Shown here one piece after another: positions 818 through 58,480 of a DNA stretch of 64,000 nt. Within the stretch, counting starts at the first letter, position 1; each line of letters opens with the position of its first letter. The stretch is from Protoeuglena noctilucae. Its lineage: Eukaryota. The stretch lies in assembly GCA_958009085.1 (NCBI GenBank), contig OY253671.1:806001-870000 (forward strand), given 5' to 3'. Below the pieces are notes generated by a model, which saw only the letters and a list, made by a program, of their open reading frames with translations, had not been told where the DNA came from and ran no database searches. The position numbers and the translations under genes were made by a program.

Positions 818-1113
818 CTAGCCGCGCCGCGCGCACGGGCAGTCGGCGCGGGGGCACCCAGCTGGGTCGCCCTGGTACGTCCCCCCGCACGCCTCGCACA
901 GCCCGAGCTCCTTGCGCTGCTTCCTGGCCAAAAACTCGTCGACCCTGGAGGCAAGAATGAGAGGCGATGGGCACGGGTGGTCCCTGCTTGCAATCAGGGG
1001 CGGCCAGCCTGCCGGAGCGGCCCTCGCCTGGACGACTGCCACAGGAGGACGACGAGGAAGGCGAAAAACGCCAGCCCCTGCAGTTGGTCCGGCGTCCACT
1101 GATAGAACTCCAT
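818..1113 (-). CDS. Small single-pass membrane protein with C-terminal Cys cluster (putative zinc ribbon), unknown function
   Basis: ATG 1113: MEFYQWTPDQLQGLAFFAFLVVLLWQSSR, GC-AG intron 945-1027, then VDEFLARKQRKELGLCEACGGTYQGDPAGCPRADCPCARRG-TAG(818). Phase joins cleanly (AG+G=Arg). An upstream start is possible. Confidence 0.6.
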
Positions 1114-1721
1114 CTGGAACGCGTTGAGAGCGACACCTCGCCGGCGCGGTCCTTCGATTTCCGAGCAAACCCACCGGCGCCCCCTCCCGTGCTGCGCACG
1201 ACGTCCTGCGCGCATGCCGATGCATATCTTGCAAAAACGTCTTTGATGGATCAGGGGAGCGTGACGGCAAGCCGATATATCCACCCTGCGCGGCGTTCAA
1301 AGGCGCGCGGCTAGTCACCGAGTGGCAAAAGGCTCGCGGCCCTCCCGCTGAACCCAGACCCACTCGCAGAGCTAGACCGACACATCTCTTGCTGGCATGC
1401 CCGCGAGACCAGCCCCGCAGGGACTGCGACGGCCATGCTGCCTGGGCCTGGCCTATCCACACAGTCGCGACAAGACCCAAACGAACTCGCGACACCGGCC
1501 TTCGTGACTGACTGACGCTAGAAGACAGGCCGCCAGGAGAGGTCCTGTGGGGCTCCAAGTGACTCCCAGCTGACGCTGCAGCACAGCTTCGCCAGTGCCG
1601 TCCAGTGGAGCGTTTCAAGAGGCCAGGAGCAACTGCCAGCCTAATCTCCTCGCGAATTACAGGCTGGACACGGGCCCTTGCTAACATTTCCTGCAAACGA
1701 CTGCCTCCCATCGCCCACCCC

Positions 1722-2608
1722 TCACTCTACAGGGGGCTGGTAGCCCTCCCTCGCCCTGGCCACCGCCCTCAGCTCGCCCAGCAGCACATCCTGGAAGTCG
1801 GGTGGGCACTTGTGGACGCTCAGGATCTTCTCCAAGATGGTCTGCAGCACCTGGCGGATGCCGGAGCCTTGAAGATACTCCAATGCCTGCGGGTGCGCAT
1901 GGACCGACGGGGTTGGAATGCGCTGGTCGGCCTGGGGTGCCCACGGCGTGGGCTCTGTCGTAGGCCGGGGGGTTGCATGACGTCGGTGGGGCAGGGGTGG
2001 CCACAGCATGGGCCTTTTCGAAGGCCAGGCCTGGACCTCACCTCTGCCTCGTGGAGGAAGAGCTCCCGCTCGAGGTTCTCCCGGTCCGGAGCCGTCAATC
2101 CGCTCACGCGGGCCAGCACGTCGACGAGCTGTTCATGAGCGCTGGACGGCGCCACGATGGCCTGCGAGTGCGGCGTACGTGCCATGTGCGCGTTCTGACC
2201 GTTGTCATCGTCGCCGTGACGAACGGGAAACAAACACGGAATACATCAGAAGAACCAGGAGCTGACGCAGCGGTCGCCTTGTTGTACGCCTCGGCCAGGG
2301 TCGTCCATGGCGCCTGCGGCCGCTGCCATATCAACAAAGCGACGAGGGCCTGCACCGGCAGAGCAGCGGAAAGCGTCACGGATATCATATCGCATCGTCA
2401 GGTCAGCGAGCCGTGCGTTGAGAGACGTCCGGGGGGCAGCGAGCGGGCCCAACACAGGCCCGACAGGTCACACAGCCCCAGCGTCTCGCCGCGACATCTG
2501 AAGAAAGCGCCCCGACGTCCTGTCGTCGTATTTCACCTCAAAAGTCTGGAACACGCGATGCTGCTGAGCGTAGTCCTCCATTTTGATGATGCGCTCGTCA
2601 TCCGTCAT
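1722..2608 (-). CDS. Small protein with two RIIa/Dpy-30-like dimerisation-docking motifs (possibly flagellar)
   Basis: 4 exons: MTDDERIIKMEDYAQQHRVFQTFE | ALVALLIWQRPQAPWTTLAEAYNK | AIVAPSSAHEQ...LFLHEAE | ALEYLQGSGIRQVLQTILEKILSVHKCPPDFQDVLLGEL...PVE*. Both halves resemble the Y-x3-H/G-(I/V)...L-x2-LL-x2-(R/K)P D/D motif. Confidence 0.55.
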
Positions 2609-3008
2609 GAGGGCCCGGTGGAGGCTCAGATGAGGCTCCGAAGCCGACGGAACGGGCATGGTCGTCACGCGTCAATGACCCCTAACCCCTGCCCGTGTGG
2701 GCTCGCTCAGAAAAAGAGGGCCGCTCCAGCGAAAGGGCTATCGCTACCCCAATCAGCAGTGTGCGTCCTTAGGCACGACTTCAGCCGCGTGAACGAGCGA
2801 ATTGCTCCAACTTCCCACCAGTTTGGAGTTCAAACGTCTGGAAATGGCGCCAGGAAAGCGCGCTGGAAAATGGTTGCTGGCATGCTGCCCTAGAGCGCTT
2901 CGCATGGCCTGTCCTCAGAGCCATCGACGACCAGCATGGGCAGCCATAGGAGGGGTAGCGAGTTGTAAGCGAAATCCATGGTCCCTGCCACACACATCGC
3001 CTCCCGCG

Positions 3009-4265
3009 TCAACTGCGGAACGTACGGAGGGGACACATGTCAAGCTCCTGACCATCACGGTGTCTCCAAGCCAAGTCCCAAGGCAGACCAGTGCCCAACA
3101 CTCGACTCGCCTCGGGGATGCTGAGCGTCAGCGGAGGCGACCCCTCGTGTCGTCCCACGGCTGCGGCAGGCGCTTGGGCCTCAGAATCCCACGGCCCCGT
3201 CGGCGCACTTGCCAGATCCCTCGCGTCCCTGGGGGGCCCGTCTAGGAAGAACGGGCAGGGCGACCCCAGGGGCTGGGTCTTGGGCGCGAGGATGTTCTCG
3301 AACAGGGGTATGGAGAAGGCCATCGGCGGGTCTCGCAGGATGATGTTGTCGACGCTGTGCTCGTAGATGAGGCCATCTGCGGGGCGAGGGGATGGCGAGG
3401 GAATAGCGAGGGGGTGCGGACGCGCGCTGCCTCATGCACACGCGCGGGTGCCGCGCACGCACCCGAGTCGAGCTTGTACTGCGAGATGCCGTCGAAGCGC
3501 CCCTCGGCCTCCCATGGGACCCGCGGCACGCCGTGCACCGTCCAGCGCATGTTGATGACCCCGTCGGACGGCTGCCAGATGCGGCGGACCTCCAAATACA
3601 AGTGCCGGAAGAAGATGCGGCCGTGGAAGCGGAGGGACCAGAAGACCGTGCGGTACCGCTGCTTGCCCTCGATGCAGATGCGGGGGTCCCGGAACACAAT
3701 GTCGTCTCTGCGGCCACGGGCGCCCGGGCTCGGTCGCACCGCGTGGTCGGGTCAACCGACGTGGGCCGGGCGAACGGCGCACCGCAGCCCGTGGTCTCGC
3801 CTGTAGATGTTGAAGTTCGGCTCGCGCATAAACATCATGGGGAGGTCCTCCCTGAGCGTCCGGACAGCATCCCCGACGTTGGCGTAGTAGTCGGCGCTCT
3901 TCTCCCCCGGTCGTCGCTTGCGCCCCGGATCTTGCCCCGGACCCCCTCCGCCCGCCGCCCCGTGGCTGGCATCCTCGCGTGTACCCGAGGCCGACGGATC
4001 CGAGCTGGGCCGCCGGCTCTGCGCCGTCGCGGCGAGGACGGTGGAGCAGTGCGCCCAGCGACCTCGGGGCTCCTCCCCACGCCCGGACGAACTGCGCGCG
4101 AAGACGGCCAAGCGCGGTGAATGCACGAACGATGTTTCTGCTCGTGGCCCCCACGAGACCAGCCCGCCGCGGCCAGGGCGCAGCGCCAGCACTCTGCGCA
4201 CCTCGGCTGTCGGTCATCTCGCAACGACAGAGACGCTCCTGCGGGGGTGAGCGAGGCAACGCCAT
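3009..4265 (-). CDS. DUF2358 (SnoaL/NTF2-like) protein, probably plastid-targeted
   Basis: Spliced DYYANVGDAVRTLREDLP...NIYRDDIVFRDP...FWSLRFHGRIFF...RWTVHGVPRVPWEAEGRFDGISQYKLD...IYEHSVDN, typical of the plant/cyanobacterial DUF2358 family. Start and last exon uncertain. Confidence 0.8.
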
Positions 4266-5454: not shown

Positions 5455-6243
5455 ATGGAGGCGCAGCTGCGTCAAACGACGGGCACGCTCGCTTGCGATG
5501 CGTCCTGCAGCCGCTCTGCCGTCGCGCCGCAGCGGCGGGCCCCGTGGAGTAAGGCGTTGGTGAGCATGCTTTGGGGCGCGCGCGCCGCGAGGGACGGCCC
5601 GGTCGCCCCCTGCCCGATCGCATGCAGTCATGGTATGCTTATCTTTCCCGCGCAGACCGTCCTGGACGCCCCTCGCTGCGCGTGCTCCTCAGCAGCTCCC
5701 GCCCATGCCGTGTGCGCCACGCACCAGCGGGTCCGCGCCCCGGGCACGTCGCGGCGGTCCGTCGCGGCGGCTAGCCTGCCTGCGTCGATCTCTGCGGTCC
5801 AGCAGCTCGTGACGTCGGGCAGCCTGGCGCTGGTGCTCTACTACCTCGCCTCTGAGTACCTGGGGTCCGCGAAGCAGGACCAGACGGGCAGGCGAGTGCA
5901 TTGCGAGGGCGGAACGCAGACACGGACGAGCGCGCGCGAGCGCTGTAAGCATGCGTACGCGTCCAGCCGTGTGCCCAGCTCTGCAGCTGAGCTTCTCCTT
6001 CTCCTCCGCAGGCCTTGCCCGGCGTGTAATGGGACGGGCATGGAGGCCTGCTTCTGCACCCGGTGGAGCGACGGGGACTTTGGCTGCAACACGTGCAACC
6101 ACACGGGCCGCATCCCGTGCCACGTGTGCCGCGGGGGCGGGAACGCCGTGCCGATCAAGTTGGAGGTGTTCATGGACGAGGAGAAGATCGTGCGCGAGCA
6201 GCGCAGGCGTCAGGGCCTGCCGGACGACTGGGGGCAGCAGTAG
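5455..6243 (+). CDS. DnaJ-type cysteine-rich zinc-finger protein lacking a J domain (DNAJE-like), likely plastid, one TM segment
   Basis: Hydrophobic segment LVTSGSLALVLYYLA, GC-AG intron 5892-6011, then CPACNGTG...CFCTRWSDGDFGCNTCNHTG...CHVCRGGG (CxxCxGxG repeats). Start approximate. Confidence 0.75.
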   Translation: MEAQLRQTTGTLACDASCSRSAVAPQRRAPWSKALVSMLWGARAARDGPVAPCPIACSHGMLIFPAQTVLDAPRCACSSAAPAHAVCATHQRVRAPGTSRRSVAAASLPASISAVQQLVTSGSLALVLYYLASEYLGSAKQDQTGRRVHCEGGTQTRTSARERCKHAYASSRVPSSAAELLLLLRRPCPACNGTGMEACFCTRWSDGDFGCNTCNHTGRIPCHVCRGGGNAVPIKLEVFMDEEKIVREQRRRQGLPDDWGQQ

Positions 6244-6626: not shown

Positions 6627-9600
6627 ATGACGCACGAGTTATACGCTGGCTCGCTCCAGCTGCTCCTGGAGCCCGAGCCGGCCCTGGGAGCAGGCGACGA
6701 CGAGCTGAGGTAAGGCCTGGAGGTCGCACGCGGCTCAGGACTGATTGCTATCGTTATATGGTAAATATGTGATGTTGAAGACACGCTCCACTCGGTGGAT
6801 GCAGCAAGGACGAGCCGCTGGAACTTTGGTTCCTTAACAAAAGCACGCTCGTCGCCGCGCGGCCGAATTCCGACGCTCCTTTGGGCGCATGGGATCATCC
6901 AGGGAATGGCATCTCTGGGTTTTTTAACGGCGCTGGCCGGGGGGCCGCCACGATGGCGATCGGGGGCGCAGGGAGCGTGAACGTCTCCGCCCGCGGAGGG
7001 CGAACGCTGCCCGTGGTCCCCGTCGGGCGCGCGAAGGTGGGGTCGTCCTGAATGCGTCCCGATGCACGCACAGAAGCTGGAGCTTGTCCTCGCTGCCTCT
7101 CTGGGCCACCCTGGGGGCCATGCAGGCCACCTTGGTTGCTGCAAACGGGAAGCATATCCCCAATGCAGGTGCTCGGGACCAAGGAGTCGGTGGGGCGCTG
7201 CCTACATGTGCTGTGGTGGGAGCGGGACCTCGTCTCGGTGACGGCGCAGTTCGCGGGGTGGTCGGGGGGCCACATGGTGGTGGACGTGCACGTTTGGCTG
7301 AACAACGCGTACTTCACTCACGTCCCGGGTCTCAGCGCAAGCACCGAGGTCGCCCCGGCCACCTCCTCGGCGTCCGCGTCCGACACCGTGGCCAAGCACT
7401 CGGTGGCGCTGCTGAGGCTTCTGGCAGCACACGCCCCGCAGCCGCCGGCAAGTGGCGACGAGGAGCTCGGGCCTGGCGAGGGTGCCGACGACAGCGGCCG
7501 CGGGGCTCAAGCGGCAGAGCGTCCGGCCAACCTCCGGGACGAGGTGCTGGCCATCATTCGCCCCGACGGGTGGACGGAGGTCGCCCCGCAGCCCTCCGGC
7601 CTCAAGCGCCAACTGTACCGGTACCAGCGTCGGGCGCTGGCGTGGATGCTGTGGCGGGAGCAACACCATGGGTTAAGCGGCGGTGCGGAGCGCGGATCGC
7701 GGGGCGCCGCAGCGCACCTGAGGGCCGAGGACGCGCACCCGCTATGGCGGCGGACGCTGCTGCCGAGCGGGGCCACCGTGTTCGTCAACATCCGCACGGG
7801 CAGCGTGTCGAGGGTCCCCATCAAGGTCGCCCACAGTCTGCCTGGCGGGTGCCTGTGCGACGAGGTGACTGGCGGCACTGCGACACCTTGCCACACCTGC
7901 ATGCATGTCCCTTGCCACCCATCCTAGCCTGGACTTACTGCCGCCCCTCCCGCATTATCATCCTACAGATGGGGCTCGGGAAGACAGCCGAAGTCATTGC
8001 TCTGGTCTTGGCGCACCCGCCCCCGCCCGCCGGCAAAGACGAGCCGGAAGAGCCAGGGGAGGGTGGTCTTGCCCCCGAGGGTCACGTGAAACGAAGCCCA
8101 AAGGAAGACGGGGCAGCAACCTCGCCCAAACCCGAACCGGGGCCGTCGGGGCGCCAGTGGGGCCCGACGCTGGTGGTGGCGCCTGCCAACTTGCTCCAGC
8201 AGTGGAAGTCGGAGATCGCGCACTTCTCCGACCTGCGTGTCCTGCTCTACGAGGGCCTCGACGATGTGCCGTTGCCTTCGGAGGACGGAGCGGGACCAAG
8301 CGAGCCTGGCGGTTCGGGCGGGGCGGGCGGGGCGGGCGGGGGAGGCAAGAAGCGGTCGAAGAAGCGGGGCCGGGCGACGCAGGACGACATCGAGCACCAG
8401 GCGCGTTTACTGGCACGGGACCTGGGGGTGACGGCCCCGAGCCACGTGCAGCTGCTTTTGCGGAGCATGGAGGAGCTCGGGGTGCCGATGCCCGACTGGG
8501 ACCCGCGGCTGAGGGAGGCGAAGGCGGCGGAGGCCGAGCGGCAGTGCCGGGAGGCCGACGTGGTCCTTACTTCGTACGCCGTGCTGCAGGCAGAGGCGAG
8601 ATGGGGTGGCTGGGCACGCTCGCAAGATGCATCATCCCTTCACAAACTGCTCCTCAGGGTCCCAAGGTCCCTGCATTGCTTGCGCTGTCGATCGCCACCT
8701 CACGCGCTCACGTGCCCTCTCTCTGTCCACGCAGATCGACTTCAAACCCAGCGAGCGCAGTCTGCGGCAGCCCAAGCGGTACCCTGTCCCGATCACGCCG
8801 CTGCTGGCCGTGCCCTGGTGGCGGCTGGTGCTGGATGAGGCGCAGGAGGTGGCGTCGGGGATATCCAAGGTCGCGCAGATGGCCTTGCGGATCCAGGCGG
8901 CCCACCGGTGGTGCGTCACGGGGACGCCCATTGGCCGGGGTGGGCTCTCTGACATCCAGGGCCAACTGCAGGTCTTGCATCACGAGCCATTCGCCGGTGA
9001 GGTCGCAACAGCCTCGGCAGCAGCCCTCGTTCCCACCTGCACTCCAATCAAGAGGCCTCGGTTGCGGCCTCTCAGCTGTCGATGCCGCAGCTCTTGTATC
9101 AGTCCCTGCTTCCTAATGATGTCAACAAGCACTCGACACGGCGCCCCACGTCAAGTCGCTTGCCGCGTCGCCGCCGTCGCAGATGCCCAGCTGTGGAAGG
9201 AGCTGGTGCAGGCGCCGTACGAGCGCAGGGTGCCGGGGTCCGAGAGCCGCCTGGTGTCCGTGCTGAGGCCCATCATGTGGCGCAACACGAAACAATCCGC
9301 CGCAGAGGACGTCCCGCTGCCGGGGCGGTCGCTGCGGCTCGCTGAGCTGCACCTGACGCAGCAGGAGAAGATTTTCTACGACGTCATCCTCGACCGGGCC
9401 CGGCGCAAGGCCGAGGCGCGGCGGAAGGCGGGGCAGGAGGCGGCAGAGATGCAGACCGTGGCGGGGGCGCTGGAGAGCGGCGGGGGCACGGGGCAGGAGC
9501 GCAGGGCCGTCTCGGCGCAGGTGCGGGCGCCGCGCATGGGCATGATACTGCGCTAAGCGCATGCGCGAGCGCGGCGGGCGTCTCCTGTCCATGTCCATGT

Positions 9601-12600
9601 CTGCTGCGGGCGCCTCTGCCGGAGTGTAGGTGTCTGCCGGAGCAGCCGAGCAGGCGCCGTGGTTTGTGGGGATTGAAGCAGAATGTCTCTGGCACCGTTT
9701 CCCGCAGGTCATGCGCCTCCGCCGCGCCGCGGACGTCCTGGCTTCGGAGACGCGGGCCATGCTGACGCAGCTGCGGTGCGCGGCCATCCACCCGCAGCTG
9801 ACGCAGTTCTGGGCATCGATGGGCGCCGAGCTGCAGATCCAGGGCGGCGGGCTGTCCATGGTCGAGATCATGGCCACGCTGCAGGCGAGGACGGGGCTCA
9901 TTTCCGTTTCAATGTTGCTGTGTGATGACCCCTCTTGCTCCCACCGTCCGCACCCCAGCCAGCCCCGGCAGCCCACCTACAGGCCCTCCCACCGTCGCCT
10001 CGCCCGCAGGAGAACATCCAGAGCGAGCTGCAGGCGAAGGAGCGGGACCTGTGCGTGTCGTTAAACGCCATGGCGAGGAAACTGGTGCAGCGCGCGGCTG
10101 CCGCGGAGCGTGCCAGGGCCGCGGAGGCTCGGGCGGCGAAGAGTCCGGGGAAGGGATCTGCAGCTGGCAAGGCATCCGCGAAGAAGAACGCGAAAGGCGG
10201 GGCTCACGGCAGCGCGCACGGGGCGGGCCGTGAGGGTGGCGCAGGGGATGGGGACGGTGTGGGCGGGGAGGGTGGGGGTCATGGGGGTCACGCAGATGGG
10301 GAGGAGAGTGGTGGGGAGGACGGGGCGTGGGCGGAGGGGGATGAGGAGGGAGAGGGGGGGGAGGAGGGGGCCGGGTGAGAGGGTGGTTGTGCAAGGCATA
10401 GGGCGGTGCTGTTCGCATAATGCCTGCGGAATGGTGGTGATACCAGCATGGCTGGTCGTGTGGTACATAAAATGTGCCTCGGTACCAGCATGGTCACATG
10501 TCCGGTTGTACCGCATGCCAGGCAGGGCCGAGGGCAGGCAGTGAGTCGATTATTGCCTTGGCTCTGTCTTTTGCAGTCGGACGCCCCGCAAGCTCCGCAA
10601 GTGGGACCCTGAGCTGCTGACCGTGAACCCTGAAGAAGACAGGCGGCGTGCCCTGGACTGCCTCACCAAGTCGTGGCGTGTGGGGGAGAACGGCATCGAC
10701 GCGCTGTTGGGAGGTGAGGGGGCGGTGCTGAGGGTGGCTGCGCGGGTGGGTGGTTGTTGCACGTAGCGGCGGGGTGGCTGGGAGACGGCAGGTGGGTTCG
10801 GTGGGTGGCTGGGCGGAAGGCGAGCGCAGTTGGGTGGCTGGGCGGGGGAGCGGCTGAGTGGTGGGAGTGGGAGTGATCCTGGCCCGTCTGTGTGCGGTGC
10901 ACGGAGAGTGTCAGGAAATTTGCATTGTATTGCATCTGTTTTCAATCTTGTTCGCGCAGGGGAGGACGCGGGTGACGAGAACATCAAGCTAAAGGCCAGC
11001 AGCTGGGCGGCGTGGGTGCAGATCCAAGTCAACACGGAGACGGCGCGGGCGGACCTGCTGGAGATGATGGGGGAGGACCCCGAGGGGGTGCGGGAGCACA
11101 GGTGAGGGGAGATGTTAGGGAGGGTTGATGAAGCACGGGTGAGGGTGCGGGTCAGCTTGTGGTGACAGGTGCTGCTCTGGACCGCTGATGGTGCCAAGCA
11201 TTGCCGCTGTCGACTGTCCATGCTTATCACCACCACGCCAGTCACCACTCATGTCCTCACCTGTCCACGAACCCCAGTCACACCATTGTTGCTCTCACCT
11301 GTCCATGTCACCCATCACCACCCATATCTCTTCACTGCCCCCCTCAGGTCCAACGTGGAGCGGAAGGTTCGGGAGTTTCTGGAGACCGAAGAGGCGGCGC
11401 TGGGGGAGGCGCAGTCGAAGCACGCGCAGCTGATCGAGAAGATCCACGAGACGGGGGCAGCGGCGGCGAGGCACGCGGGGGCGGCGGAGGAGGCGGCGTT
11501 CGGTGGGGCGGCGTGGGCGCGGGCAGGGTGGCCCGGGGGGCGCGACGTGGGCGGGTGGCTGGCGGCCCTGGCGGGTGTTGTCGCGGATGCCAAGGCCGCG
11601 GAGGGGCGCGCGAGGGAGGAGCGGGAGGAGCGGGCGCGGGACCGCGCCATGCAGGGCCTGCTGGGTCGGGAGGTATTTGACGCTTTGGACGCCAAAGAGG
11701 CGGAGCTGAAGGACGCGCGGACGGGGCTGGAGGGCGCGTTCTTGATGGAGAGAGTCGAGGCTGCCGCGGGCGCCGTGGGGCGATGCCGCGAGTGAGGGGG
11801 GGGCGGTGTCGTGTGGATGGCTGTGACATGAGTGGCTGTGTAATGCGAATGCTGTTGCTATGTGGATACCTGACACGGTCTCTTGCCCGCGTTACCACCA
11901 ATACACCCTCGGATAGCATTAGCGTCACACAACACCAGCCACCGTCCAGACCCACACCGCCCAACCCCTCGCAGGGCGTTGGCGTCCAGCTCCGCCCCGA
12001 GCAACGTCTCTGCGTATCTCGACTTCGACAAGCCCCCGCACCTCGCCGCCGCGCACCGCGCGCTGTACCTGGGGGACTCGGGCGGGGCAGTGCGTGCGGC
12101 GGCTGCTGTTGCCTCCTGGGGTTACGGGGCGGAGGCGGCAGTGGCGGGGGAGTTCCTGCATCGCAAGGTGTACAATCCCCTGGTCAAGCTGTCGCGGAGT
12201 GTGTCCCGGGGAGCGCGGGAGGGGCTGGAGGGCGCCAGAGGGGAGGGGCTGCTGCGTGCCGTGTGTGCGGTGCGGAGGGTGGCGGACGCCGTGGGGCTGT
12301 GGCGCCAGGAGCACAAGGCAGACATGCAGGTGAGATGGAGCGAGGAGCGGTGCAGCGTGCAGGTGACAAGGGAGGAGTGGATTTAGCAAAAATACAGGCC
12401 GCCTCCTCACACCTTGCTCACCGGTCCTCGTTGCACTGCTACCCTCCCTGCCCCGTCACCTGCACCCGACCCCCGCCTGCTCAGCTCTCACCCTTGCTGC
12501 CCTTCCTTGGCTCCCAGGTGGCTCTCAAAAGGCACGACATGGACTCGGCCGCGCAGACCATGACGGCGGCAAAGGACAAGCACCCCGCGGTTCGCAAGCA

Positions 12601-14811
12601 GCTGCGGGCGTCACTGGAAGACATCGAGGAGGCGGCGGTGGAGAGCGAGAAGCTGTGCCGCACGCTGCGGGGGCGGTTCAAATTCGTGAGGAGCTCTGCC
12701 GGGGGTGCGCCTGAGGAGAGGCCCAGGGAGGCAAGGACGGGGGTTGCCGAGCGCGACGGGAAGGCAGGGGGCGGGGCTGAGTCCAGCGGTGCGGCTGGCG
12801 TGGGGTCTGAGGGGGGCGCGAGGGTGCAAGAAGAGGCGACGGGTGGGGTGGGCGGCGACAGGGGGGGGGACGGGGCGGGCGCTGGGAGTTTAAACGGTGT
12901 GGGTGGGAGTGGCGAGGCGACGGTGTCTGGTGGGGCCAAGCGGGGTCGCGAGGAGGGAGTGGAGGGCGGGGAAGGGGTGGGAGTGGGTGAGGGAGGCGGT
13001 CGCAAGCGCGTCAGGTTTGCCACAGAGACAAAGGGCGGGGAGGGGGCGGGGAGCGCTGAGGGTGGGACGGAGCCGGGTGCCGCGGGCGGTGGGGTCGAGG
13101 GCAGGGGCGGCGGGGTCGGTGGGGCAGGGGGGTTGGCGGGGACATCGATGCAGCCCTTGGGCGGAGGCGGCGAGAGCACGTGCGCCGTTTGCCTGGACTC
13201 TCTGGAAGTGGAGGGTGCGGCCATCCACGTGTATCCCTGCGGCCACCGCTTCCACGCCGCGTGTGGGGAGCGGCTGTGGGATGACCCCGTGCAGGTGAGG
13301 GCGGAGAGAGTGGTTGGTAAGAGTGGAGAGGGTGGGACGAAGGTGGTTAATGAGACATGCTATGTAGTGTGCGTCGATGTATGGGGATGGATGTCTGAAG
13401 TCGGAATGATGGAACCGAGCCCTTGGCATGACCTGGCATGACCCAACTTGGTCCCCGCCCCCGCAGCGCGGCAAGTGCCCCCACTGCCGGGTCAAATGCA
13501 AGCCCTCGGACATCTTCAGGTGACACCCAAGGCGTCGCAGAGTGCCCATTGTTGCCCTAGTGTAGTGTACCGTGATAGCGATGCTGCCGTGACTGTGTTG
13601 CCAAAGCATACCCAGCATGCCCAGCCGTCACCCCTGCCCCGCCCCCGCAGAGCCGTGCACAGCACGCGCGCCTCCGGCACGTCCTCCAACCACGGAGACC
13701 CCTGCTCGGACTTCCCAGACATGGCAGACACGCTGCCGGGCATCACGGGTGACTTTGGCACCAAGGTCTCCGCCCTGGTCCGGCGGCTCAAGTGGCTCGA
13801 AAGGAACTTCCCGGAACAGAAGAGCCTCGTCTTCTCGTCCTTCGCGGTGAGGGTTGGCTTCGAGGCAGGGGGATATGAGATGGGTTTACGAGATGACTTG
13901 CAGTTACAGCGTCCGTGCCATTGAGGGGATGCGCCATGGCGTGGTGTTGTTGAGGGCAAGCAGGGACGAAGGGGTTGCAGCTGCTTTCAGACAGCTTGCG
14001 GACCTGCTGTTGCCCCGTCAAGCGGCGCGTGGACAGTCCAGGGGGCCCACAATGCACCCCAATGCGCCACCCCCAACACCACCACCGCCACCCCATGCCC
14101 ATGCCTGCTGGCGTCCTCGCAGCCCGCTTTGGAGTTCGTATCGAAGGCCCTGCACACCAACGACATCGCGCACTCCAAGCTGCTGCGGTCGGGGGGCCGC
14201 AAGGGCAACGCGGGGGAGCTCCGCAAGTTCTACGAGCAGCCGGATGTCCGCGTGATGCTCCTGGCCCTCAAGGCCGGGGCGGCGGGGCTGACGCTGGTGC
14301 AGGCGAGCAACGTGTTCCTTCTCGAGCCGACCATCGACCCCGCGGTGGAGCAGCAGGCGGTGGCGCGGGTGCACCGGATCGGGCAGACGCGGCCGGTGGT
14401 GTGCACGCGGCTGCTGGTGCGGCAGACGGTGGAGGAGGCCGTGCTGAAGGCGAGAGGGGTGGGGTGGGGTGTGTGCGTGCGATGTGAGGGAGGGGACGCA
14501 CGCGCGGCTGTCAGCTTGTGGGTGGGGGAGCAGTGGTATTGTGCTGTTGTGCAGTCTTGCATTGTGCTGCTGCTGTCGTGCAGTCTCGCTCTCCCGCAGC
14601 TGCACTGCCGCACTGTGCTGCTGCCACCCCACCGTATAGTGCACTCGATCTCTCGCAGATCAACGAGAGCCGGCAGAGTCTCTTCGCGACGCACGGGGAC
14701 GCGGGCCACGGGGAAGCAGAGCCTGACGATGAGGCCACGACCCTGGCGGAGCTGGCGCCGGACCAGGACACCCTGGACGAGGCAGACGTGGACGCGCTGC
14801 TGGGGATGTGA
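6627..14811 (+). CDS. SHPRH: SHPRH-type SNF2 helicase / RING E3 ubiquitin ligase (~15 introns)
   Basis: Q motif LYRYQRRALAWML; motif I GGCLCDE|MGLGKT; Ia TLVVAPANLLQQWKSEI; ADVVLTSY; YPVPITPLLAVPWWRLVLDEAQ; RWCVTGTPI; RING at ~13181-13490; helicase-C GTKVSALV, KSLVFSSF, GAAGLTLVQASNVFLLEP, QAVARVHRIGQ; TGA 14811. Start is tentative. Confidence 0.85.
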
Positions 14812-21953: not shown

Positions 21954-23328
21954 TCACCGCGCCTGGTTGGCGGGGTTCTCCGGCGCCCTCTGCCATAACT
22001 TGAAGGCGATGTCCTTGTACTGTGGCAGCTTGAGGTTGGGCTTGTCCTCCTTCAGGCGCGGGAGCTCGCGGTCGAAAAACTCCTTGAACGTCAGCGGACC
22101 GGCCACGGCCGCCGGGGACAGGCCCAGCTCCGCCATGGCACTCACGGCCGCGTCGATGCCGCTGCGGGCGCCAAGGGAAGGGCGTTGACTTAACCCACGC
22201 CCTACGTCCTGAGGGTTTAGGGAGGACGCAAGCAACAGCGCGCGTCCTACCTCGCGACGATGACATCGTCCTCGCGGTTGAAGTTCCGGACGTCGACGAT
22301 TTCTGCATACTCGTCCGCCCCCATCTCTCGCCGCGCTGCCTGCTCGGCAGCCTGCATCATGCGCTGGCGCCTCTCCTCCTCCTCCTCCTGCGCGGCAACG
22401 ACGCGACCGCGGTCGGTCAAGCCGGGCTCACGACGGCGACACGGGAGCGACGGTGGCAGCAGCAAGAGAGCCACCCCCAGCGTCCCCACTGCACCGCACA
22501 ACACACCTTGTGCAGTTAAATGTCGTGCGCCATGACCTTGCCCGTGTCGTATTTCCACTTCTCGCGCGTCTTGGTCATCGACTTGATAATCCCCTCCTGC
22601 TCCTGCTCGTGCTGCGGGCAAGGCGCGCGATGGCCGGACCCGTCACTGGGGGCGCGCAGCCCAGGAGGAGCATGCCAGGCAGAGCCGAATGCCCGCATCT
22701 ACCCCTATCCCAAGCGCAGCATACACAGGCGCTCGCAAGCCCACTCGCCATCTCTTTCGCCTCCCGTCGCTTGGCAGCCGCCTCCTCACGTTGTTTCCCC
22801 TTCTCCGCGCGCTTCTGCTGTGCCTTGGTCATAGCACCCTCGCCCGCTTCCCTGCGGTGCAGATGCAGCAGCGATCGCGCCGGCAACACACTCCCGCCGG
22901 TCGCCGCGCGAGCGCCGGCGAAGGCATGCACGCAGAGGGCGGGGAGCACTCTCGCCTCCAAAATGCATCCTCCTTCGCCTGGTCCTCAGCCTGCTTCTTT
23001 GATATCTTCTGTTGCTCCTTCCTCACCCTGGCCTGCAAGAGCGGCACGTGGCGCGGAGGTGCCAATGGCTGGGGTGCCAAGGCCCGAGCACTGGGCTCCT
23101 GGGCACTCGAGTGCGCCCTCCGCGTCCCAGACGTGTTCATTACAGTAACTCAAGGTCAGTCGAGGAGTATGTAGGCGCGAGAGTGTGGGGCGCGCTCTCA
23201 GAGAACGGGTCCCACGCGCGAGGTGTCTACGCCTCGCCCCGCGCCGCAGGCGCCCTCGCCCCGGGACCCGCCGTGAGCCAACGCACCTCCAACGCTTTCT
23301 CGTTGATCCCCTTGTGCGTCTTGCCCAT
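21954..23328 (-). CDS. CCDC124: CCDC124/Oxs1/Lso2-family coiled-coil protein (DUF1014)
   Basis: MGKTHKGINEKALE|ARVRK...AKEDAFWR...EEAAAKRREAK...NFNRE...GIDAAVSAM...DRELPRLKEDKPNLKLPQYKDIAFKLWQRAPENPANQ. Confidence 0.88.
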
Positions 23329-48018: not shown

Positions 48019-51000
48019 TCACGCCTCCTCATCCGCTCCGCTCGCGTTGCTCTCAGCGCCCGCGCCCACGGGCAGCACCCGTAGCCTCGCCTTGGGGCCC
48101 TCCCCGACACGTTCGTACGACAGCCCCAGTTCTCTCTTGACCAGCAGCGCCTGCATCTCCAGCACGTCCCCCGGCCTCGGCAGCAGCTCCATGGGCTGCC
48201 CCTGGGGCACCACCACCTCCTCCACCGCCAGCCTCGCCTCCTCCAAGGCATCGCGCACGGCGCGGGGAGGGCCGCCGAAGCCCTTCAGCTTCCCCGTCAC
48301 TTCCTGGAAGACACGCTGCGGGCGCAGACACGCCAGGCAGGTCGCTGCATGCCGGCAGCCACCAGGCAGATTGGCAAAGCTGCACAGCAAGCTAGGACAC
48401 CCTGTTTGCGAGACAAGGGTAGCCAAGCCCTCGCTACAAGCGGCCGGTTGGTGCTCGTCCTCCCCGCCACCTGTACCGCAGTGTCATTTTATACAGCATC
48501 TGCAGCGCTACTCACCAAGTACATTGCGTCGACGGCAGACAGCCCAGGGATGGAGCGGTCGGCCGCGGAAGCCACGGCCCCGCCCTCCACCACCTCCTCC
48601 TCGCCCAGCCCAGGCCCGGACGGCCCAGCCACAGCGCCGTTCCCGCTCCCCGCACCCACCGCCGCACCCTCCCTTGCCGCTCCCTCCCTCGCCACCTCAC
48701 GCAACGCCGCCCCTTCCACCCCCGCCGCCCCTTCGCCCTCCTCCTCCCCTTCCTCATCCCCATCGTCCTCGTCACCATGCACCGCCTCCACCTCACTGTC
48801 GCTGTCCTCGCCCCGCCCCGCCCCACCCACCGCGCGACCCTCACCCGCCGCCGTAGGTGACTCTGCCCCGTCCCTGCGGGTCTGGAAATACCCTCCCGCA
48901 CTCGGCTCCGCACCCACCAGCGTCCGCACCGCCTTGACCAACGCCGTGGCCGAGGCGCTCTTCACCGCATAGATGGGCACCCCGGCCGCCTGCATGAGTA
49001 TCACGGTGTCAGGAAACACATCGCAGTCTGCCGCTGGCCAGTTGCCATGTTTGCTGAGGCACGCGCATGCAGGCACACATGCTGGGCGCAGCATCGCTCA
49101 TCGCCGAGCCACGCTCACTCTGCCTAACGGCCCGGCTGGCTAACCTCACCTTCGCTGCCCTCTTGAGCCACCCGCCCGCCTTGAGCCTCGACCGCAGGGC
49201 GAGCACCGCGTCCGCGCCGTGCAAGTGCCCCGTCACCTCCACCTCGGACGCCATCCCCAGAGCATCCACCACCTGGGCCAGGTCATCGCGGGAAATGTCA
49301 AACAGATACACCTGCATGGCGTCGGCCGACTTGGTGACAGGGGGTATCGACCCCAGCGCTCCCTCGAAAGCTTCGTAAGCGCTCTCTGACGACATGCTGG
49401 CTGGGACGGCAACCCCCCGGTCCGCCCCAGGCGCACCGTCGCCCCCGCGACTCCACAACAGCGTCCCCGCGGGTCCCGACCGCGGCGCCCCCAGCCAGGG
49501 GCCGCGCTGCCCATTGCCCGTCGCCCGCGTGCCCTGCGGACGGCAAGTGTGTGGTTGGTCACATGAGACTGGTCTTGGCTCACTGGTGTGTAAGCAAGAG
49601 CAGGGGCAGCACAGCCACGCTTGCGTCAGCTCACTCGTCGCTGTCATGTCACCGACTCTGCCCCATCGCCCCTCACCTCAGCCCCGCCCCGTGCACCCCC
49701 CGCCCCATCCCGGCCGGGCCGTGCGCCCCTCCCATCCCGATCCCCATGCGAACCACCCAGCGCCATGTGGCCGTCGGGAGCCCACCCGGACTCGAGATCC
49801 GCCACCTCCCTCGTCACCTGCAAAGGTGCAATGGACACAAAGCATGGTATGCAACTAGATGGTCCACTATCTACGCATGAGGGGCTGCATGGCCAAAGCG
49901 ACCGACTGCCGACCGACTGCAAAAAGGCGCTGTGTGTTGAGCTCGAGCCCAATGAAACAGATAGCGCCGGAAGCAACAAGCATGGAGCCCCATGCGCTTT
50001 CATCTCAACAACCCAGGTCCTCCCGCAATTCACCTCGAACGACCCGTCCGGCCGAGCCCTGCGCACTTCCACCGCCGGGTTCCTCCCCAGCAACATGTCG
50101 TCCACGGCCGTCGCCACGTCCTGGTGCACCCGCCACACGCCACGCTGCGACGAGCTGGAAGCTTTACGTCACATCCCACCCACACTCCTATCGCGGAGTG
50201 TCGGTGCAAAGCACGGAAGCGTCACGTCACGTTTCACTCACACCCCAGCACCGAAGCGTCGCGTCACGACCCACCCACCCCTTCTCCTCCCCGGCCCCTC
50301 ACCTCGAGCATCTCCACTGCCACGTCGAACGTGGGCGGCCCCTCCCGCTCCAGGATGCTCTTCTGCACCCCGCGCCTCCGGGCCTCCTCGTCGGACAGAG
50401 TCACCGACGCCATGCCGCCCGTCAGGTCAGACAGCACGGGGTTCTTGACCACGTTCTCCAGGTAGTTGCCGTGCGCCGTGGCCACCAGCTGGATGCCCCT
50501 CTGCGGTAGGACAAAGGCACGGGGCGTTGTTTCAGTGGAAGTCACGTTCGATCGAGACACCAAGGGGCGGGTCTACTCCATGCACTCCATGGTGCTGGTA
50601 GCTAAGTGCAGGAATGAGCCGGGGACTCGCCTGGGCTATGGTACGTGCCGCCGCGGCCTCCAGCTCCGTCCCAATCTCATCGATGATGATGACCTCTGGC
50701 ATGTGGTTCTCCACTGCGGGGGCAGCCCAAGTGGTGCCACCACTGTCCCCATGCATCACCGGCCTCAGTACCAACGCACGGCAGCTGAGGTGACTGTGCT
50801 GATGCGCCACTACAACGCCCTCAATGCCCCTCACCGGCCTCGATCATGACCCGGTGCTGCTGGGATGGGTCCGCGACCTGCATGCGCCTCGCCCGGCCGA
50901 TGGCCGAGTGCGGGATGTCGCCGTCCCCGCCAATCTCGTTGCTGGTGTCCACGATGACGACTCGCTTCAGCGCCACGTCTGCCAGGACACGAGCCACCTC

Positions 51001-52292
51001 CCTGAGTGGTCAAGCAGGGGAGACCCGCGGCTCAGCAGATGGCAGGGTTGGTGGAGACGACCAAGAGTGAGAGCGACGGTCGACATGCGGGGCATGTGAA
51101 TGTCAATATGGTAGCAACGATCGGAACAGAGGCGCGGGAGACGGTCAAGGGGCGGGGGAGTGCTGGGACCAGTGTCGCCATGCGCGTGGCTCGCCTGAGG
51201 GCGGTGGTCTTCCCCGACCCTGGCTTCCCCAGCATGAGCAGGCTCCGGCCCTCCATGATGATGTCGCTGACCATTGCCGCGCTCCCGGGCACCGCGCGAC
51301 CCGCGCGGCACGTCAGGCCGACCACCTTCCCCGCCCTGTTGCGGATGCACGAGATGCGGTGCAGCGTGCGGTCGATGCCCGCGCGGTTGTCGCCCCCGAA
51401 CTCTCCCACGTTGCGCATCGCGGCTTCCAGGTCCTCCGCAGATACGGCCACGCCTGCGCATGCGGCGACCATGGCATAGGCGTCCACCCCGCTCAGCTTG
51501 CACGCGCGCACGCCCCCCTCTCCTCTGCTCGCGCGCCGGGACTCACCGCCCTCCCCAAGCTCCTTGTCGCGGCCAGGGAAACGCGCCAGGGCCGGCCTCC
51601 CGAGGTCCATGACCACCTCGACCAGAGTGTCGAGCTCCGGGTGTGCCTCTGCGGGGAGCGAGCGCGCGTGTGACTGCAGCACTGGCTAGCTCGGGCGCGC
51701 AGACTGCAGCACCACGGCGGCGTTTGTTCTCACCAAGCTGCGCCCTCAGCCTCTCCGGAAGCAGCCGGACCAGCGCCTGCGGGCGGGACGAAGCAAGCAT
51801 CGTGGCTTGAGGATGCCCGTCCCCGCAGCGATCTCGACGATCGCCGCTTGGCGATGTCGATGAGCGAGTGCACTCACGCGAAGTTCCTCCAGCGTTTGAT
51901 CGCGCCCCTGCACGCGGACGACGTCCTCCGGGGGCCGCACGATCATTGCATTCGTCGTGCCGTCCACAGGGACGCCCGTCGATCCCTGCGGCCGAGGATG
52001 TCATGCGCGCTTCTATCGCAATCTGTGCGGAGCATTCGGCATAACCCGAGCGGCGGGGAGCGAGCGTTTTTCGCGATCGCCAGCGGGGAAGGAAGCGCGG
52101 GCGCGGCCTCGCCTCGCTCAGCCTGGTCGGCAGCGCCGAGAGGCCGTGCAGCAAGCCAAGGTTTCGTAAACGTCGACATGATCTCCACCGTCCTTCGCGC
52201 GAGAAAGCCAGCCCGCGCCCAGCCCACGCAATGCTGGGCACCCCCCTCCCCCCCGCCCGCGCCTGAGCCGCACGTGACAGCAGCATCGGCAT
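48019..52292 (-). CDS. ycf45: Ycf45-like (SpoIIIAA-related) AAA+ ATPase with a C-terminal R3H-like region, nucleus-encoded
   Basis: [35 protein letters not shown]; Walker [77 protein letters not shown]-terminal [13 protein letters not shown]...RLRVLP. Confidence 0.92.
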
Positions 52293-52541
52293 GACGTGCA
52301 TCCGGGCATCCACCCCGGAACAATGCGCGGCGTGGCGAAGAGGGACGCCTTCATTTTATCGACGTTGTGCAAGTTTGTGCCAGTCCCCACGTTGTTCAAC
52401 CCCCCCATTTGTCTAGTCGCGGTCGCATGCGAGGTCTGTGTTCGGCAGGCCTCTGCAAGGCAGCGCAGCCGAGGCTTCTCATAGCCTGCCCCAAACACTG
52501 TCTGTGCTTTTGCATCCCACCGGTCAGTGCGAGGGCCCGCG

Positions 52542-54845: not shown

Positions 54846-55198
54846 CGGCTGTTACCGCTCGGCGACGACGCGCCCGCGACGGGCGTCTGCCTGTCCCGCT
54901 CTCCTACCCACTCGTGCTACTTGCTACTCGAGCTCGTGTCGTAACCGTCACGGAGCCTGTTTTCTACTCGCCAGAGAGCCTCACGTTTCTAAGCTAGGCA
55001 GAAGCGCAGCCGAGACGGCCATGCTAGCCCGTGCTAGCCCATGCGACGAGTTTCCGACCTTGGCCCGAGGCCGTGGGTGAGCCCTGTAGGTCCAGGGCGA
55101 CATGCTGAGATCAGTCCACGCAGTCCTCACTGCACGCTGTGAAGATCATGCTATGCAACGAGACTACTAACAGAGATGTGTCATGTTGTCAGCTAGCG

Positions 55199-56944
55199 TC
55201 AGAGGCCAGTGCCAGGGTGGTAGCGTAGCACGCGGAGAGCGTCCTCTGGTGTGGCTGGCAGAACACGCTTCAGGACCTGGCCGTCTGGAAGGGAGACCTC
55301 GAAGGTGAAGTGGAACACCGTCGTCGTCTCGGCAAAGCGACTCTCGGGCTTGGTGCGGCTGCGAGGGCGGCCGTGCGACGATCGGCAGTGCCACACGTGG
55401 GGCCGGCCAAAGCTGTGGGGGCGGCACGCGGATCACCTCGCGACCACCTCGACGTGCACCCGCCCCATGCGGCCCCCTCCGCTCCCAGAGGCGCCTCCCT
55501 GGCCGTCGCTGCAGCCTCCGCCCTTATCACGGAGCATGGCGGTGTGCAGCACCACCGCCCGGAGCCGCAGGAGGTCCGCCACCTCGACGGGACGCACAAA
55601 CGCGATCTCGTCCACTTCCAGAAACGTGGGCCGCGCGCCCGCGAACACGTAGCACGTGGCGAAGGCCACCTCATAGGCGCGGCGCATCAGGAAACCCCCA
55701 AAGACGGTCCCGTTCAAATTGCGCACCTGCGTGGGAGGCCCTGGGCCGTAGATTGCCCTGTGAGGCACGTAGGCGATACGTGCTGCGGGCCATGGCCGCT
55801 CCAGCACTGGCTCCCATCAGGTTCATGGGAGCAGCCCGTGCCTGCGGCTGGCAGATGAAGATGTTGGACTGGCCCGTCTCCTGCATGACAATGTCGTTCG
55901 GGAGTCCGAGCCCAGGCATGTCCATGCGTCGCCGTGCCTCGGCCACCATGGCCTCCGCCCACTCGCGGCTCTCCCGCTCGAAACTCACGTCGCCCTGGGC
56001 CCTACGCCGCCGCTGGTCCTTGCGCGTATCCGCGACCGCCTGGCGCTCTGCAAACAGCCTGCGGGCGCCACGTGACCTCTTCCGCCTGCGTTGCCGCCTG
56101 CGCAATCACAGCAACCGGGATCAGTCACTGCAACTGGTCGGCTCTCACCTGCGGTCTGCGTCGGTCTCGCACATGAGCGGGGGGACCCGGACGGCACCCC
56201 CCGTGACTGGGTCTCGAGCCACGAAGGTGAACACCGCGCGCAGGGACGGCCCCGGCTCGCCCTCCTGCTGCACTTCGATCTGGATGTCCATGCTTGACGT
56301 CCCCGTCCACACCACGCGCCCGGACGCCTCCATGTCAGACCCCAGGCGGAGCCGCCGCATCACGGAGATACTGCGTGTTGGGGACAGGTGCGGCTGTGCT
56401 TGAAGAAGGCAGGGGGAACACAGGGAGCGGGAGTGGGGTTAAGACCGGCTCTGGCATGCACGCACCGATCCACCGAGGCAGTGACCAGAGAGGGTGGGGG
56501 CGTGCCGGGACCAGAGGAGAAGTGGTCGAAGGCGATGTTGCCCGCGAGCGAGTCCAGGTCCTCCAGCAGCCTCCCGTGTCGCACCGCGCCCCAGGGGTTG
56601 CGGTACAGCTCCGCGAGCTCCCCATCGGTCGTGAAGGGGTAGGGCACGGAGGTGGTGTGCGGCAGCCGCGGAGAGGGCGTTACGCTGGCCGACGATGCGA
56701 CGGGGGCAGCAAGGGCCTCCCCCCGAGCCAGGCGATCCTCCCACAAGTGTCGTGTCACCGGCGTGTAGGCCCCGATGGTGTGGCGTGCCGCTAGGGGCGG
56801 CACGGCAGGCGCATCCGGAGCTCCAGTGGTCCAGCCGCGCGCCGTGAGCGGAAACGTGGTCGCGGTAGTCACGCACGCGGGCTGCCACGCTGCAGCTTGG
56901 GGAGCGAGGGCGGCCACGCGGATGGCGCGCCGAAACGCATGCAT
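55199..56944 (-). CDS. ACOT9: Acyl-CoA thioesterase 9-like (double hotdog), probably mitochondrial
   Basis: YRNPWGAVRHGRLLEDLDSLAGNIAFDH; LVTASVDR; GRVVWTGTSSM; FTFVARD; ICQPQ|VRNLNGTVFGGFLMRRAYEVAF; FVRPVEVADLL; FHFTF; VLPATPEDA. Confidence 0.93.
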
Positions 56945-57276
56945 CAGGCCGCCCCGGGCGGCTTGCACTCCCGCCAGCGAGAACAACGAGCGCAACTGTC
57001 GTCACAAGCGGGTCAGAGGGGGGGAGGACGTAGGATTCGTTGCGAAATTTTGGTAGCCATGACACACTGGCGTGACTGCCAGTTCCATGCTCGGGCGTGA
57101 CGCTCATCACGGTCTTGGGCCAGCTCCTGCGCGGTACTTTGTGGCATGTGTTGCACCCGGCACGGCATACACGTCGGATTCCTCCTGGAAACGCTTGGTT
57201 GCAGGCCTTACCGCCGCCCCCTCCCACCAAGCGCTTGGAACCCCGGGACCCCCGGCTGTCCACTCCAGCAGCAGCC

Positions 57277-58480
57277 ATGTCTCAGACGCTCAAGCTGACG
57301 TCCGTGGACAACCAGTCCTTCGAGGTGACAGGTCATTCACTGCGCTGCGCTTCGGAGAGCGCTATCTGACGCGATGCCTGCCCCCGCTCGGTGCATTTGA
57401 GCTGTGTTATTGTTATGGCGTCGACTGCGTTGCGCATCGTTGGTCCCCGGCCGATCCGTCGTCCCAAGCGACCGAAGGCGCTCAGCAGCGCGTAGCCGGG
57501 CCGCCCATTCCGATCCTGGAGATAATGAGACTCCGCGGCACTTGCGCACGTCGTGCGGGGCCCGGCGCCCTCCAAGCGGGGCCTCCCGCCAATGGTTGGG
57601 CCTTGTGAGGGCCGCAGGTCCAACGCGAGGTGATGAAGATGTCCGAGTACGTCACGAACATGCTTGAGGATATCGAGGACGGCGAGGCGTGCCCCACGGT
57701 GCCCGTGAACACGGTGAGGCATGTTTCCGAGGGGGAGGGAGCACGGTGCGCGAGCAGGGTCGGCAACCACCCGCCTCCCCGGCCGCGCAGGTGCGCGGTG
57801 AGATCCTCTCCAAAGTGTTGGAGTATTGCAAGTACCACACGGAGGCCGAGGGCGAGGGGGAGGGCAAGGTGAGCAAAGCGCGCAGTTGGCAGGGCGGGGT
57901 CGCCGGTTGTCCCGTTTCAGGCTTCGCCGCGCGGCGCGTCGGACTCTCGCGGCCCACGTCGCCCCGCGCAGCGCAGCCGTGTGCCGCAGGCCGGCCCCTG
58001 TCGCCCGGGGGGGTCACATCGCCATCGCGATGCCTGCCCTGAACCTTCTGCGGCGCACGCGCGCTTGAAGAGCTCTTCCCGCTCGCACCGCCGCCGCAGA
58101 AGTCCGACGTGGACATCAAGGCGTGGGACGTGGAGTTCGTGAAGGTGGACCAGTCGACCCTTTTCGAGCTCATCCTCGCGGCCAATTACATGAACATCAA
58201 GAGCCTGCTGGACCTCGCCTGCCTGTCGGTCGCGAACATGATTAAGGGCAAGTCGCCGGATGAGATCCGTAAGGCGAGGGCGGGGCGTCTGTCGGCGGGA
58301 GCACGCACTCTGTGCATGGGGCTCAGGCGCAGGGCCGGGAGCGCGTCCCGCTCCCGCATCGTGCGCGCGTTGTGTCAATCGTGAGCTGTTCTGCGCACGC
58401 AGACCTTTGGGATCAAGAACGACTTCAGCCCGGAGGAGGAGGCGGAGGTGCGCAAGGAGAACCAGTGGGCGTTCGAGTGA
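57277..58480 (+). CDS. SKP1: SKP1 (SCF ubiquitin ligase adaptor), 5 exons
   Basis: [17 protein letters not shown]...[12 protein letters not shown]...[77 protein letters not shown]. Confidence 0.98.

Follow-up and report, generated by a model that had tools for sequence, protein, structure and literature searches.

The 64,000-nucleotide stretch of Protoeuglena noctilucae contig OY253671.1 analysed here (positions 806,001 to 870,000 of the forward strand; hereafter the window, with all coordinates counted from its first letter) has a G+C content of 66-70% throughout in 4-kb bins and of about 67% overall. It carries, among others, a DUF2358-domain gene, a gene with SNF2, RING and Helicase_C domains, genes for a MYST histone acetyltransferase, VPS53 and SKP1, a CCDC124-like gene and a gene for a Ycf45/SpoIIIAA-like ATPase, and its source organism is a GC-rich marine green alga with many short introns. 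Our subject is the introns in these genes that start with GC rather than GT and end with AG (GC-AG introns), 18 of which had been listed by a model that worked from the DNA letters without database searches (the sequence-only reading). We estimate that such introns make up roughly a quarter (23-30%) of the introns in coding sequence (CDS introns) of the 64-kb window.

A coordinate check of the 18 listed intervals found GC at the start, an exonic AG directly before it and CAG at the end in every case, and the donor pentamers are GCGAG (14), GCAAG (2), GCGAC (1) and GCACG (1), as expected from the earlier statement that all 18 donors follow an exonic AG and that most read GCGAG. Ten of the 18 are individually confirmed, three by RNA contigs and seven by profiles of homologous proteins; the remaining eight, which start at 945, 2162, 5892, 22852, 24260, 41307, 42821 and 45203, are predicted by a gene finder, which recovers the complete set of 18. 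The list of introns as such therefore holds up.

The RNA evidence comes from a single study of marine metatranscriptomes, four runs of which contain 24-51% of the sampled words of positions 39000-48999 (runs of one labelled organism contain 100% of them). Three RNA runs (X1, X2 and X3) and one DNA run that contains all of these words (X6) were aligned as contigs to 39000-58999, which yielded 50 joints; among the 15 listed, 12 are GT..AG or CT..AC and three are GC-AG, namely the introns at 39426..39520 (+ strand), 55727..55841 (- strand, donor AG/GCACGG, where the slash marks the splice junction) and 58274..58402 (+ strand, in the SKP1 gene), all excised exactly in the contigs. For each RNA joint we enumerated every cut that the slack of the alignment permits. 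The first intron, skipped in one contig each of X1 and X3, has GC..AG as its sole canonical-like cut within a slack of 4 bases; the second, skipped in X1 and X3, has CT..GC (read on the + strand) as its sole canonical-like cut within 6 bases; and the third, skipped in X1, X2 and X3, likewise has only GC..AG. No GT..AG or CT..AC cut lies inside the alignment ambiguity of any of the three, which answers, for these junctions, the earlier concern that transcripts might use nearby GT donors. None of the listed joints is present in the DNA run, in which a single contig spans the 20 kb without any listed difference.

Seven further junctions were tested against protein homologs, gathered for the MYST gene (60), the gene for the Ycf45/SpoIIIAA-like ATPase (77) and the SNF2/RING helicase gene (24; here a first protein search with an SNF2 exon gave two weak matches and a representative search was used instead). 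A profile was built from the homologs alone, and the gene model was scored against versions that either kept a single intron or shifted its donor to each in-frame GT or GC site up to 90 nucleotides (nt; MYST) or 120 nt (the other two genes) away. The three genes contain seven of the listed GC junctions, and in every case the listed position scores best, the next best alternative being 7.7-12.6 bits lower. In the MYST gene (- strand), these are 18978..19067 (AG/GCAAGC; next best -12.3 bits, in-frame retention -24.7 bits) and 18187..18393 (AG/GCAAGG; next best -8.7 bits, retention -20.5 bits with three stops). The ATPase gene (- strand) contributes 50501..50630 (next best -12.6 bits, best GT alternative -21.6 bits) and, directly past the P-loop, 51002..51194 (-11.0 and -23.8 bits), and the SNF2/RING/Helicase_C gene (+ strand) contributes 8596..8734 (-7.7 and -16.6 bits), both flanking exons of which match the SNF2 domain, 9885..10009 (next best -12.5 bits, a GT at +21) and, after Helicase_C, 14450..14658 (next best -8.3 bits, a GT at +9).

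Several junctions had been described as falling inside highly conserved motifs. This stands, on Pfam, RNA or homolog-profile evidence, for SKP1 (EIRK/TF, split by 58274..58402), MYST (LLSK/LFLDHK, split by 18978..19067) and the Ycf45-like ATPase (TIAQ/RGIQL, split by 50501..50630); for the fourth, VPS53 (LLDVQ/AV, split by 24260..24387 on the - strand), the support is that of the gene finder, and PDB sequence searches with the two flanking VPS53 exons returned no match in one case and three irrelevant matches to designed proteins in the other. In single-exon scans, Pfam positions run on without a gap across the SKP1 intron (Skp1 positions 25 and 26) and the MYST intron (MOZ_SAS positions 34 and 35), as they do across GT introns of the same genes, and 16 green-algal homologs are invariant over the block that contains the MYST junction.

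The frequency of GC donors was assessed with a purpose-written, self-trained generalised hidden Markov gene finder, seeded with 1006 codons from Pfam-matched stretches of long open reading frames (ORFs) and with 12 RNA-confirmed GT introns, and thus with zero GC introns. In a free run, the second intron base (+2) received a score of 0 whether it was T, C, A or G, so that GG and GA donors acted as decoys; the result was 19 gene models with 109 CDS introns, of which 72 were GT, 31 GC, 3 GG and 3 GA, and 13 of the 15 listed RNA joints were among those recovered. Once the +2 frequencies were learned, the trained run gave 113 introns (79 GT, 34 GC, no GG and no GA), and when GC donors were disallowed the total score fell by 327 nats, from 2584 to 2257, and the models changed at roughly 30 introns. 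Two of the decoy calls were rejected by the homolog profiles: the GA donor of 19368-19684, for which a GT donor 63 nt upstream is better by 21.8 bits, and the GG donor of 51777-51907, for which a GT donor 30 nt downstream is better by 5.6 bits. The supply of dinucleotides is similar for GC (15863 sites) and GG (13200 sites), and among sites with a strong flank (score above 5, with +1 and +2 excluded) 18/35 GC and 16/29 GT are used as donors, compared with 0/17 GG and 0/10 GA; since GC and GG sites are similarly common and GG is never used at strong flanks, opportunity does not explain the GC donors.

The eight introns predicted by the gene finder have strong flanks and no in-frame GT rival, as the best alternatives have flank scores of only -5.8 to -0.5. 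On the - strand, they are 945..1027 (83 nt, AG/GCGAGG, found in both the free and the trained run; flank score 6.9 against -5.7 for the best in-frame GT alternative, with a frameshift if retained), 2162..2277 in the DUF2358-domain gene (116 nt, AG/GCGACC; 3.8 against -5.8, with a length not divisible by 3), 22852..22955 in the CCDC124-like gene (5.4 against -4.2, with a frameshift if retained) and the VPS53 intron at 24260..24387 (6.4 against -2.1). On the + strand, they are 5892..6011 (120 nt, AG/GCGAGT; 7.0 against -1.5), which if retained is in frame and without stops, so that the reading frame alone does not exclude retention, 41307..41436 (6.1 against -3.3), 42821..42990 (5.4 against -2.9) and 45203..45356 (5.9 against -0.5).

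The free run also made 13 GC calls beyond the listed 18, and six of these have good flanks and no GT rival. Five are candidate introns: 3708..3800 (- strand, AG/GCGAGA; flank score 6.1 against 1.1 for the GT alternative), downstream of which the exon begins exactly at the start of the DUF2358 match; 22612..22748 (- strand, TG/GCGAGT; 4.6 against -8.2); 23759..23844 in VPS53 (- strand, AG/GCGAGC; 5.4 against -8.7); 41066..41156 (+ strand, GG/GCGAGT; 3.7 against -2.8); and 43502..43731 (+ strand, AG/GCGAGG; 6.8 against -1.1), which would introduce five stops if retained. The sixth, 2350..3110 (- strand), is a candidate donor at 3110 (AG/GCGAGT, flank score 6.1) with an uncertain acceptor, and its unusual length of 761 nt suggests that an exon may have been missed inside it. 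For the weak extra calls at 20068 and 11780, the homolog profile did not discriminate.

The model-based GC-AG fractions are 28% (31/109) and 30% (34/113), and a conservative tally, from which weak or ambiguous GC calls were dropped, still gives about 24 GC-AG introns among about 103 (23%). The sequence-only reading had put the share at over 10%, which was an underestimate; its rough count was 120-140 introns in all, compared with 109-113 CDS introns modelled here and some 7 kb left without models. Its figure of about 1% for the usual background agrees with the 0.37-0.86% of introns reported for five model eukaryotes (PMC1557818).

GC and GT introns in the window have their flanks and acceptors in common. 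Both have a (C or G)AG/G(T or C)GAG donor, a C-rich 3' tract and a GCAG/G acceptor, with a flank consensus of -2A, -1G, +3G, +4A and +5G common to the two classes; no single position differs significantly between them, and the median lengths of the two classes are 130 and 126 nt. At +3, G rather than A is found in 94% of the GT introns and 84% of the GC introns. Across all modelled introns the acceptor varies unusually little, with C at -3 in 100% and G at -4 in 81-87%. A U12-type origin was rejected, as 0/109 modelled introns have ATCC at +3 to +6 and no branch-like motif is enriched; within the last 45 nt of 103 introns, the branch-point consensus CTRAY occurs in 4/72 GT and 2/31 GC introns, no more often than in a control region, and the 3' part is merely C-rich. 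An origin from introners or other repeats was also rejected: an all-against-all blastn of the 109 introns produced one 25-nt chance match and no families, so the introns are not copies of an introner-like element. Judged by these sequence features, the GC-AG introns of the window are probably ordinary introns of the major spliceosome (U2-type) that carry C for T at +2.

What distinguishes the two classes is the strength of the whole donor flank. The perfect five-position flank, AG/G.GAG (the dot standing for +2), is found in 18/31 GC donors and in 17/72 GT donors; put the other way, +2 is C in 18 and T in 17 donors with the full flank, and C in 13 and T in 55 donors with any mismatch (Fisher p=0.0013). 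Relative to the T:C odds of 0.65 in intron interiors, taken as background, T at +2 is favoured 3.6-fold overall, 1.4-fold at perfect flanks and 6.5-fold at imperfect ones. The motif AGGCGAG is present 36 times on both strands of the window, compared with 16.7 +/- 4.3 expected from 100 dinucleotide-preserving shuffles, none of which reaches 36, and AGGTGAG is present 30 times, compared with 8.8 +/- 2.8, excesses that are comparable in magnitude.

These flank data fit compensation combined with GC pressure, and the best explanation, which we hold with reasonable confidence, is that U2-type GC donors arose in this way. This was one of the two causes put forward by the sequence-only reading, a GC-biased erosion of the T at +2 offset by the rest of the site, and it agrees with the counts at perfect and imperfect flanks as well as with the flanks and acceptors that the two classes have in common. 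In the proposed model, the local 5' splice-site consensus would be AG/GTGAG; where all five flank positions match it, +2 would contribute little to recognition and a change from T to C would be nearly neutral. Under strong GC-ward pressure (mutation bias and/or GC-biased gene conversion), strong-flank donors would then drift to GC, and donors with weaker flanks would remain under selection for GT. We infer both neutral drift under GC pressure as the cause and the standard U1/U6 machinery as the agent of splicing. Compensation here is the known rule for GC-AG introns pushed to an extreme, Sheth et al. (2006) having described that GC-AG donors match the rest of the consensus better and so offset the mismatch to U1 (PMC1557818).

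The other cause put forward, a changed splicing machinery in which a variant U1 5' end, U6 ACAGA box or U1C or LUC7 protein (to which we add Prp8) has relaxed the reading of +2, appears rather unlikely; on this view, the GC donors would result from relaxed recognition and not just from compensation. Strong-flank GC sites are used as often as strong-flank GT sites, which makes +2 seem almost unread there, and with G at +3 in most introns of both classes the pairing of GCGAG with a canonical U1 is rather weak. Base modification or proteins of the U1 small nuclear ribonucleoprotein have, moreover, been considered as possibilities for Micromonas pusilla and Aureococcus by Iwata and Gotoh (PMC3033335). 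However, donors with imperfect flanks prefer T by 55 to 13, so that +2 is still read; the U1 5' end is canonical in two algae with 22-40% GC-AG introns (PMC3033335); and the window offers no information on the machinery, an Rfam scan of it having found no RNA genes, small nuclear RNA (snRNA) genes included. A narrower version, in which +2 is effectively unread at AG/G.GAG sites and the machinery has perhaps co-evolved with GYGAG through pairing of the U1 5' end or U6, through U1C or through base modification, we regard as unlikely; if true, it would offer a natural system with thousands of matched GT and GC donors for the study of 5' splice-site recognition.

Selection of GC donors as deliberately weak sites, for regulated intron retention or alternative splicing, is very unlikely. 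It could draw on low-depth contigs of run X2 that are unspliced across introns (41988-42474, 42897-43348, 45391-45768, 49195-49610 and 55203-55610), on the high intron retention reported beside GC donors in Emiliania huxleyi (PMC4028052) and on the association of GC donors with alternative splicing in animals and plants (PMC2490688). Yet these X2 contigs cover GT introns too: that at 42897-43348 runs unspliced through part of the GC-AG intron 42821..42990 and through the next GT intron, and intron 55359-55436 is unspliced in X2 and removed in X1 and X3. The unspliced state may reflect retained introns, pre-mRNA or carried-over DNA. In addition, the GC donors occur in housekeeping genes and inside invariant motifs (SKP1, MYST and the Ycf45-like ATPase), it is the GT donors that have the weaker flanks, and a special regulatory class would not be as common as 23-30%. 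Least probable of all, and largely refuted, is an artefact of forced reading frames with real GT donors nearby or of assembly errors that placed C at +2: eight listed introns owe their support to a gene finder that was permitted GC donors and GC-rich DNA has long random frames (720 ORFs of at least 60 residues in six frames), but three junctions are excised in RNA contigs without a GT option, seven are demanded by homology, the decoy GG and GA donors are almost never picked, and the contig of the DNA run has no listed difference from the window over 20 kb.

Several points weigh against the estimate of a quarter and against compensation under GC pressure as its explanation. The count covers 64 kb and not the genome, and 8 of the 18 listed introns as well as all 13 extra GC calls depend on the self-trained gene finder; 2 of these 13 have an equally good GT alternative and 5 have weak flanks (score below 2). 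The gene finder misses 2 of the 15 listed RNA joints, along with the 5' ends of two genes, leaves about 7 kb (29.3-36.4 kb) without a gene model, and fuses neighbouring genes, at least two, at 37.6-47.7 kb (37623-47678). The RNA contigs of the first gene in this fused model stop near 40107-40146, and the bridging 'introns' (39973-40967, or 39977-40576 together with 40661-40765) are fusion artefacts that were excluded from the credible introns. On the RNA side, the evidence consists of assembled contigs from one study, five listed introns within 39000-58999 (41307, 42821, 45203, 50501 and 51002) are not among the 15 joints listed of the 50, and the unspliced X2 contigs cross GT and GC introns alike, part of 42821-42990 included.

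A further point concerns the closest relative. It is represented by a 7.1-kb metagenome contig, L001, of 70% G+C, which was the sole related genomic contig found and the MYST gene of which (L001:1802-4070) has three introns, all GT-AG, compared with five in the MYST gene of the window; a catalytic exon of 306 residues is unbroken where the window's gene has three introns. Neither of the two sites at which a GC-AG intron splits the window's MYST gene is interrupted in the L001 gene, so that the comparison of orthologous introns for GT-to-GC conversion, as once suggested, had no conversion to score. The gene finder called three GT introns and two doubtful GG introns on L001, and overall none of its six credible introns has a GC donor. 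At a rate of 28%, 0/6 has a probability of about 0.14, which makes L001 uninformative rather than contrary. From these gene structures, intron number differs markedly between the lineages of the window and of L001.

In the protein libraries searched, the top matches of the window are chlorophyte proteins of at most 66% identity. For the MYST protein, the closest match is a metagenome protein (66%) and the best named one is from Pedinophyceae sp. YPF-701 (57%); for the Ycf45-like protein, the corresponding values are 60%, again for a metagenome protein, and 53% for the same named alga, and the best matches of both proteins are from green algae. Because no entry in these libraries exceeds 66% identity to them, the proteins point to another green-algal lineage, and the organism thus belongs, judging by its protein sequences, to a poorly sampled one that is distinct from Micromonas pusilla. 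No near-identical spliced protein was found in the libraries; the sole identical entry is a 146-residue ORF (9116-9553, + strand) that runs from an intron straight into an exon of the SNF2 gene and is a prokaryote-style ORF call on genomic DNA of the same organism. A metagenome scan with the exon at 44825-45202 did not find relatives, our literature search found no paper that could be tied to the lineage, and in the Prasinoderma genome paper (PMC7455551) the word 'splice' is absent.

An abundance of GC-AG introns, the novelty of which had been implied by the sequence-only reading, has been in print for high-GC algae since 2011. Iwata and Gotoh (2011) reported GC-AG fractions of 39.6% in Aureococcus, 22.2% in Micromonas pusilla CCMP1545, 7.7% in Chlorella sp. 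and 2.7% in Micromonas RCC299, tied the fraction to G+C content, described the U1 5' ends as canonical and called the origin of these introns an 'enigma' (PMC3033335). The window shows the same pattern, 66-70% G+C together with 23-30% GC-AG introns, at the scale of a window and not of a genome. A close likeness is to Micromonas pusilla CCMP1545, also a marine green alga, with 65.9% G+C compared with 67% and 22.2% GC-AG introns compared with 23-30% (PMC3033335); in contrast to it, the window has about 5-6 CDS introns per gene (109 in 19 models) and no intron repeat family. Aureococcus anophagefferens and Pelagomonas calceolata are likewise GC-rich and marine, and their GC-AG fraction exceeds the usual one by an order of magnitude, which the authors ascribe to genome G+C (PMC3033335; bioRxiv 10.1101/2024.10.30.620910), the values being 39.6% in the gene models of 2011 and about 14-17% in the pelagophyte models of a 2024 preprint (bioRxiv 10.1101/2024.10.30.620910); unlike the organism studied here, they are stramenopiles with less than one intron per gene. 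Emiliania huxleyi resembles the window in its 65% G+C and in GC donors paired with a canonical AG acceptor, which were validated by reverse transcription PCR and RNA sequencing at about 60% of donors (Feldmesser et al. 2014; PMC4028052), but it is a haptophyte with a majority of GC donors, whereas GT still predominates here (about 70-77%). Chlorella sp. NC64A is another intron-rich, very GC-rich green alga with a raised fraction (PMC3033335), although the fraction is about 3-4 times lower and the alga is a freshwater symbiont of a different class. The GC-AG introns of model eukaryotes, finally, are of the same U2 type and show the same compensation, at 0.37-0.86% compared with roughly a quarter here (PMC1557818).

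The phenomenon, its link to G+C content and the question about the machinery are therefore all published, and the new element is a further lineage, that of an intron-rich green alga, among the few GC-rich algae in which GC-AG introns are known to be abundant. No new question is opened, since whether the splicing machinery differs in such lineages was already asked in 2011. The window does offer a clean, small-scale view of the rule that C at +2 is tolerated once the other five donor positions follow the consensus. The interest of the finding is modest and mainly practical: gene prediction for this organism must permit GC donors, as models restricted to GT would disrupt conserved motifs of SKP1, MYST, the SNF2 helicase and the Ycf45-like ATPase, and GT-only ab initio gene models have proved wrong in Emiliania huxleyi (PMC4028052).

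Some minor observations concern the remainder of the window. In the segment without gene models (29300-36400), all six frames have a coding potential close to zero or negative, long ORFs lack Pfam matches (for example 33778-35226, 31492-32676 and 29809-30834, all on the + strand) and the + strand carries four AGGTGAG motifs; a mobile element may lie here, or else a gene that is atypical or evolves fast. Loose-end consensus strings from the read alignment matched nowhere in the window. Two odd joints were seen in X3 contigs, 48225/51604 and 46848/46794, with a few extra letters between their sides, the former spanning 3.4 kb within the region of the Ycf45-like gene. The ATPase encoded by that gene (48019-51946, - strand) has long inserts that are acidic and rich in Gly and Ala, as well as a PF25516 domain at its C terminus, and its PF19568 plus PF25516 architecture is common to green-algal homologs. 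Short repeats at 45843-45879, 46958-47007 and 47116-47155, which were skipped in the read alignment, sit in a low-complexity, Ala/Gly/Pro-rich part of a long gene model.

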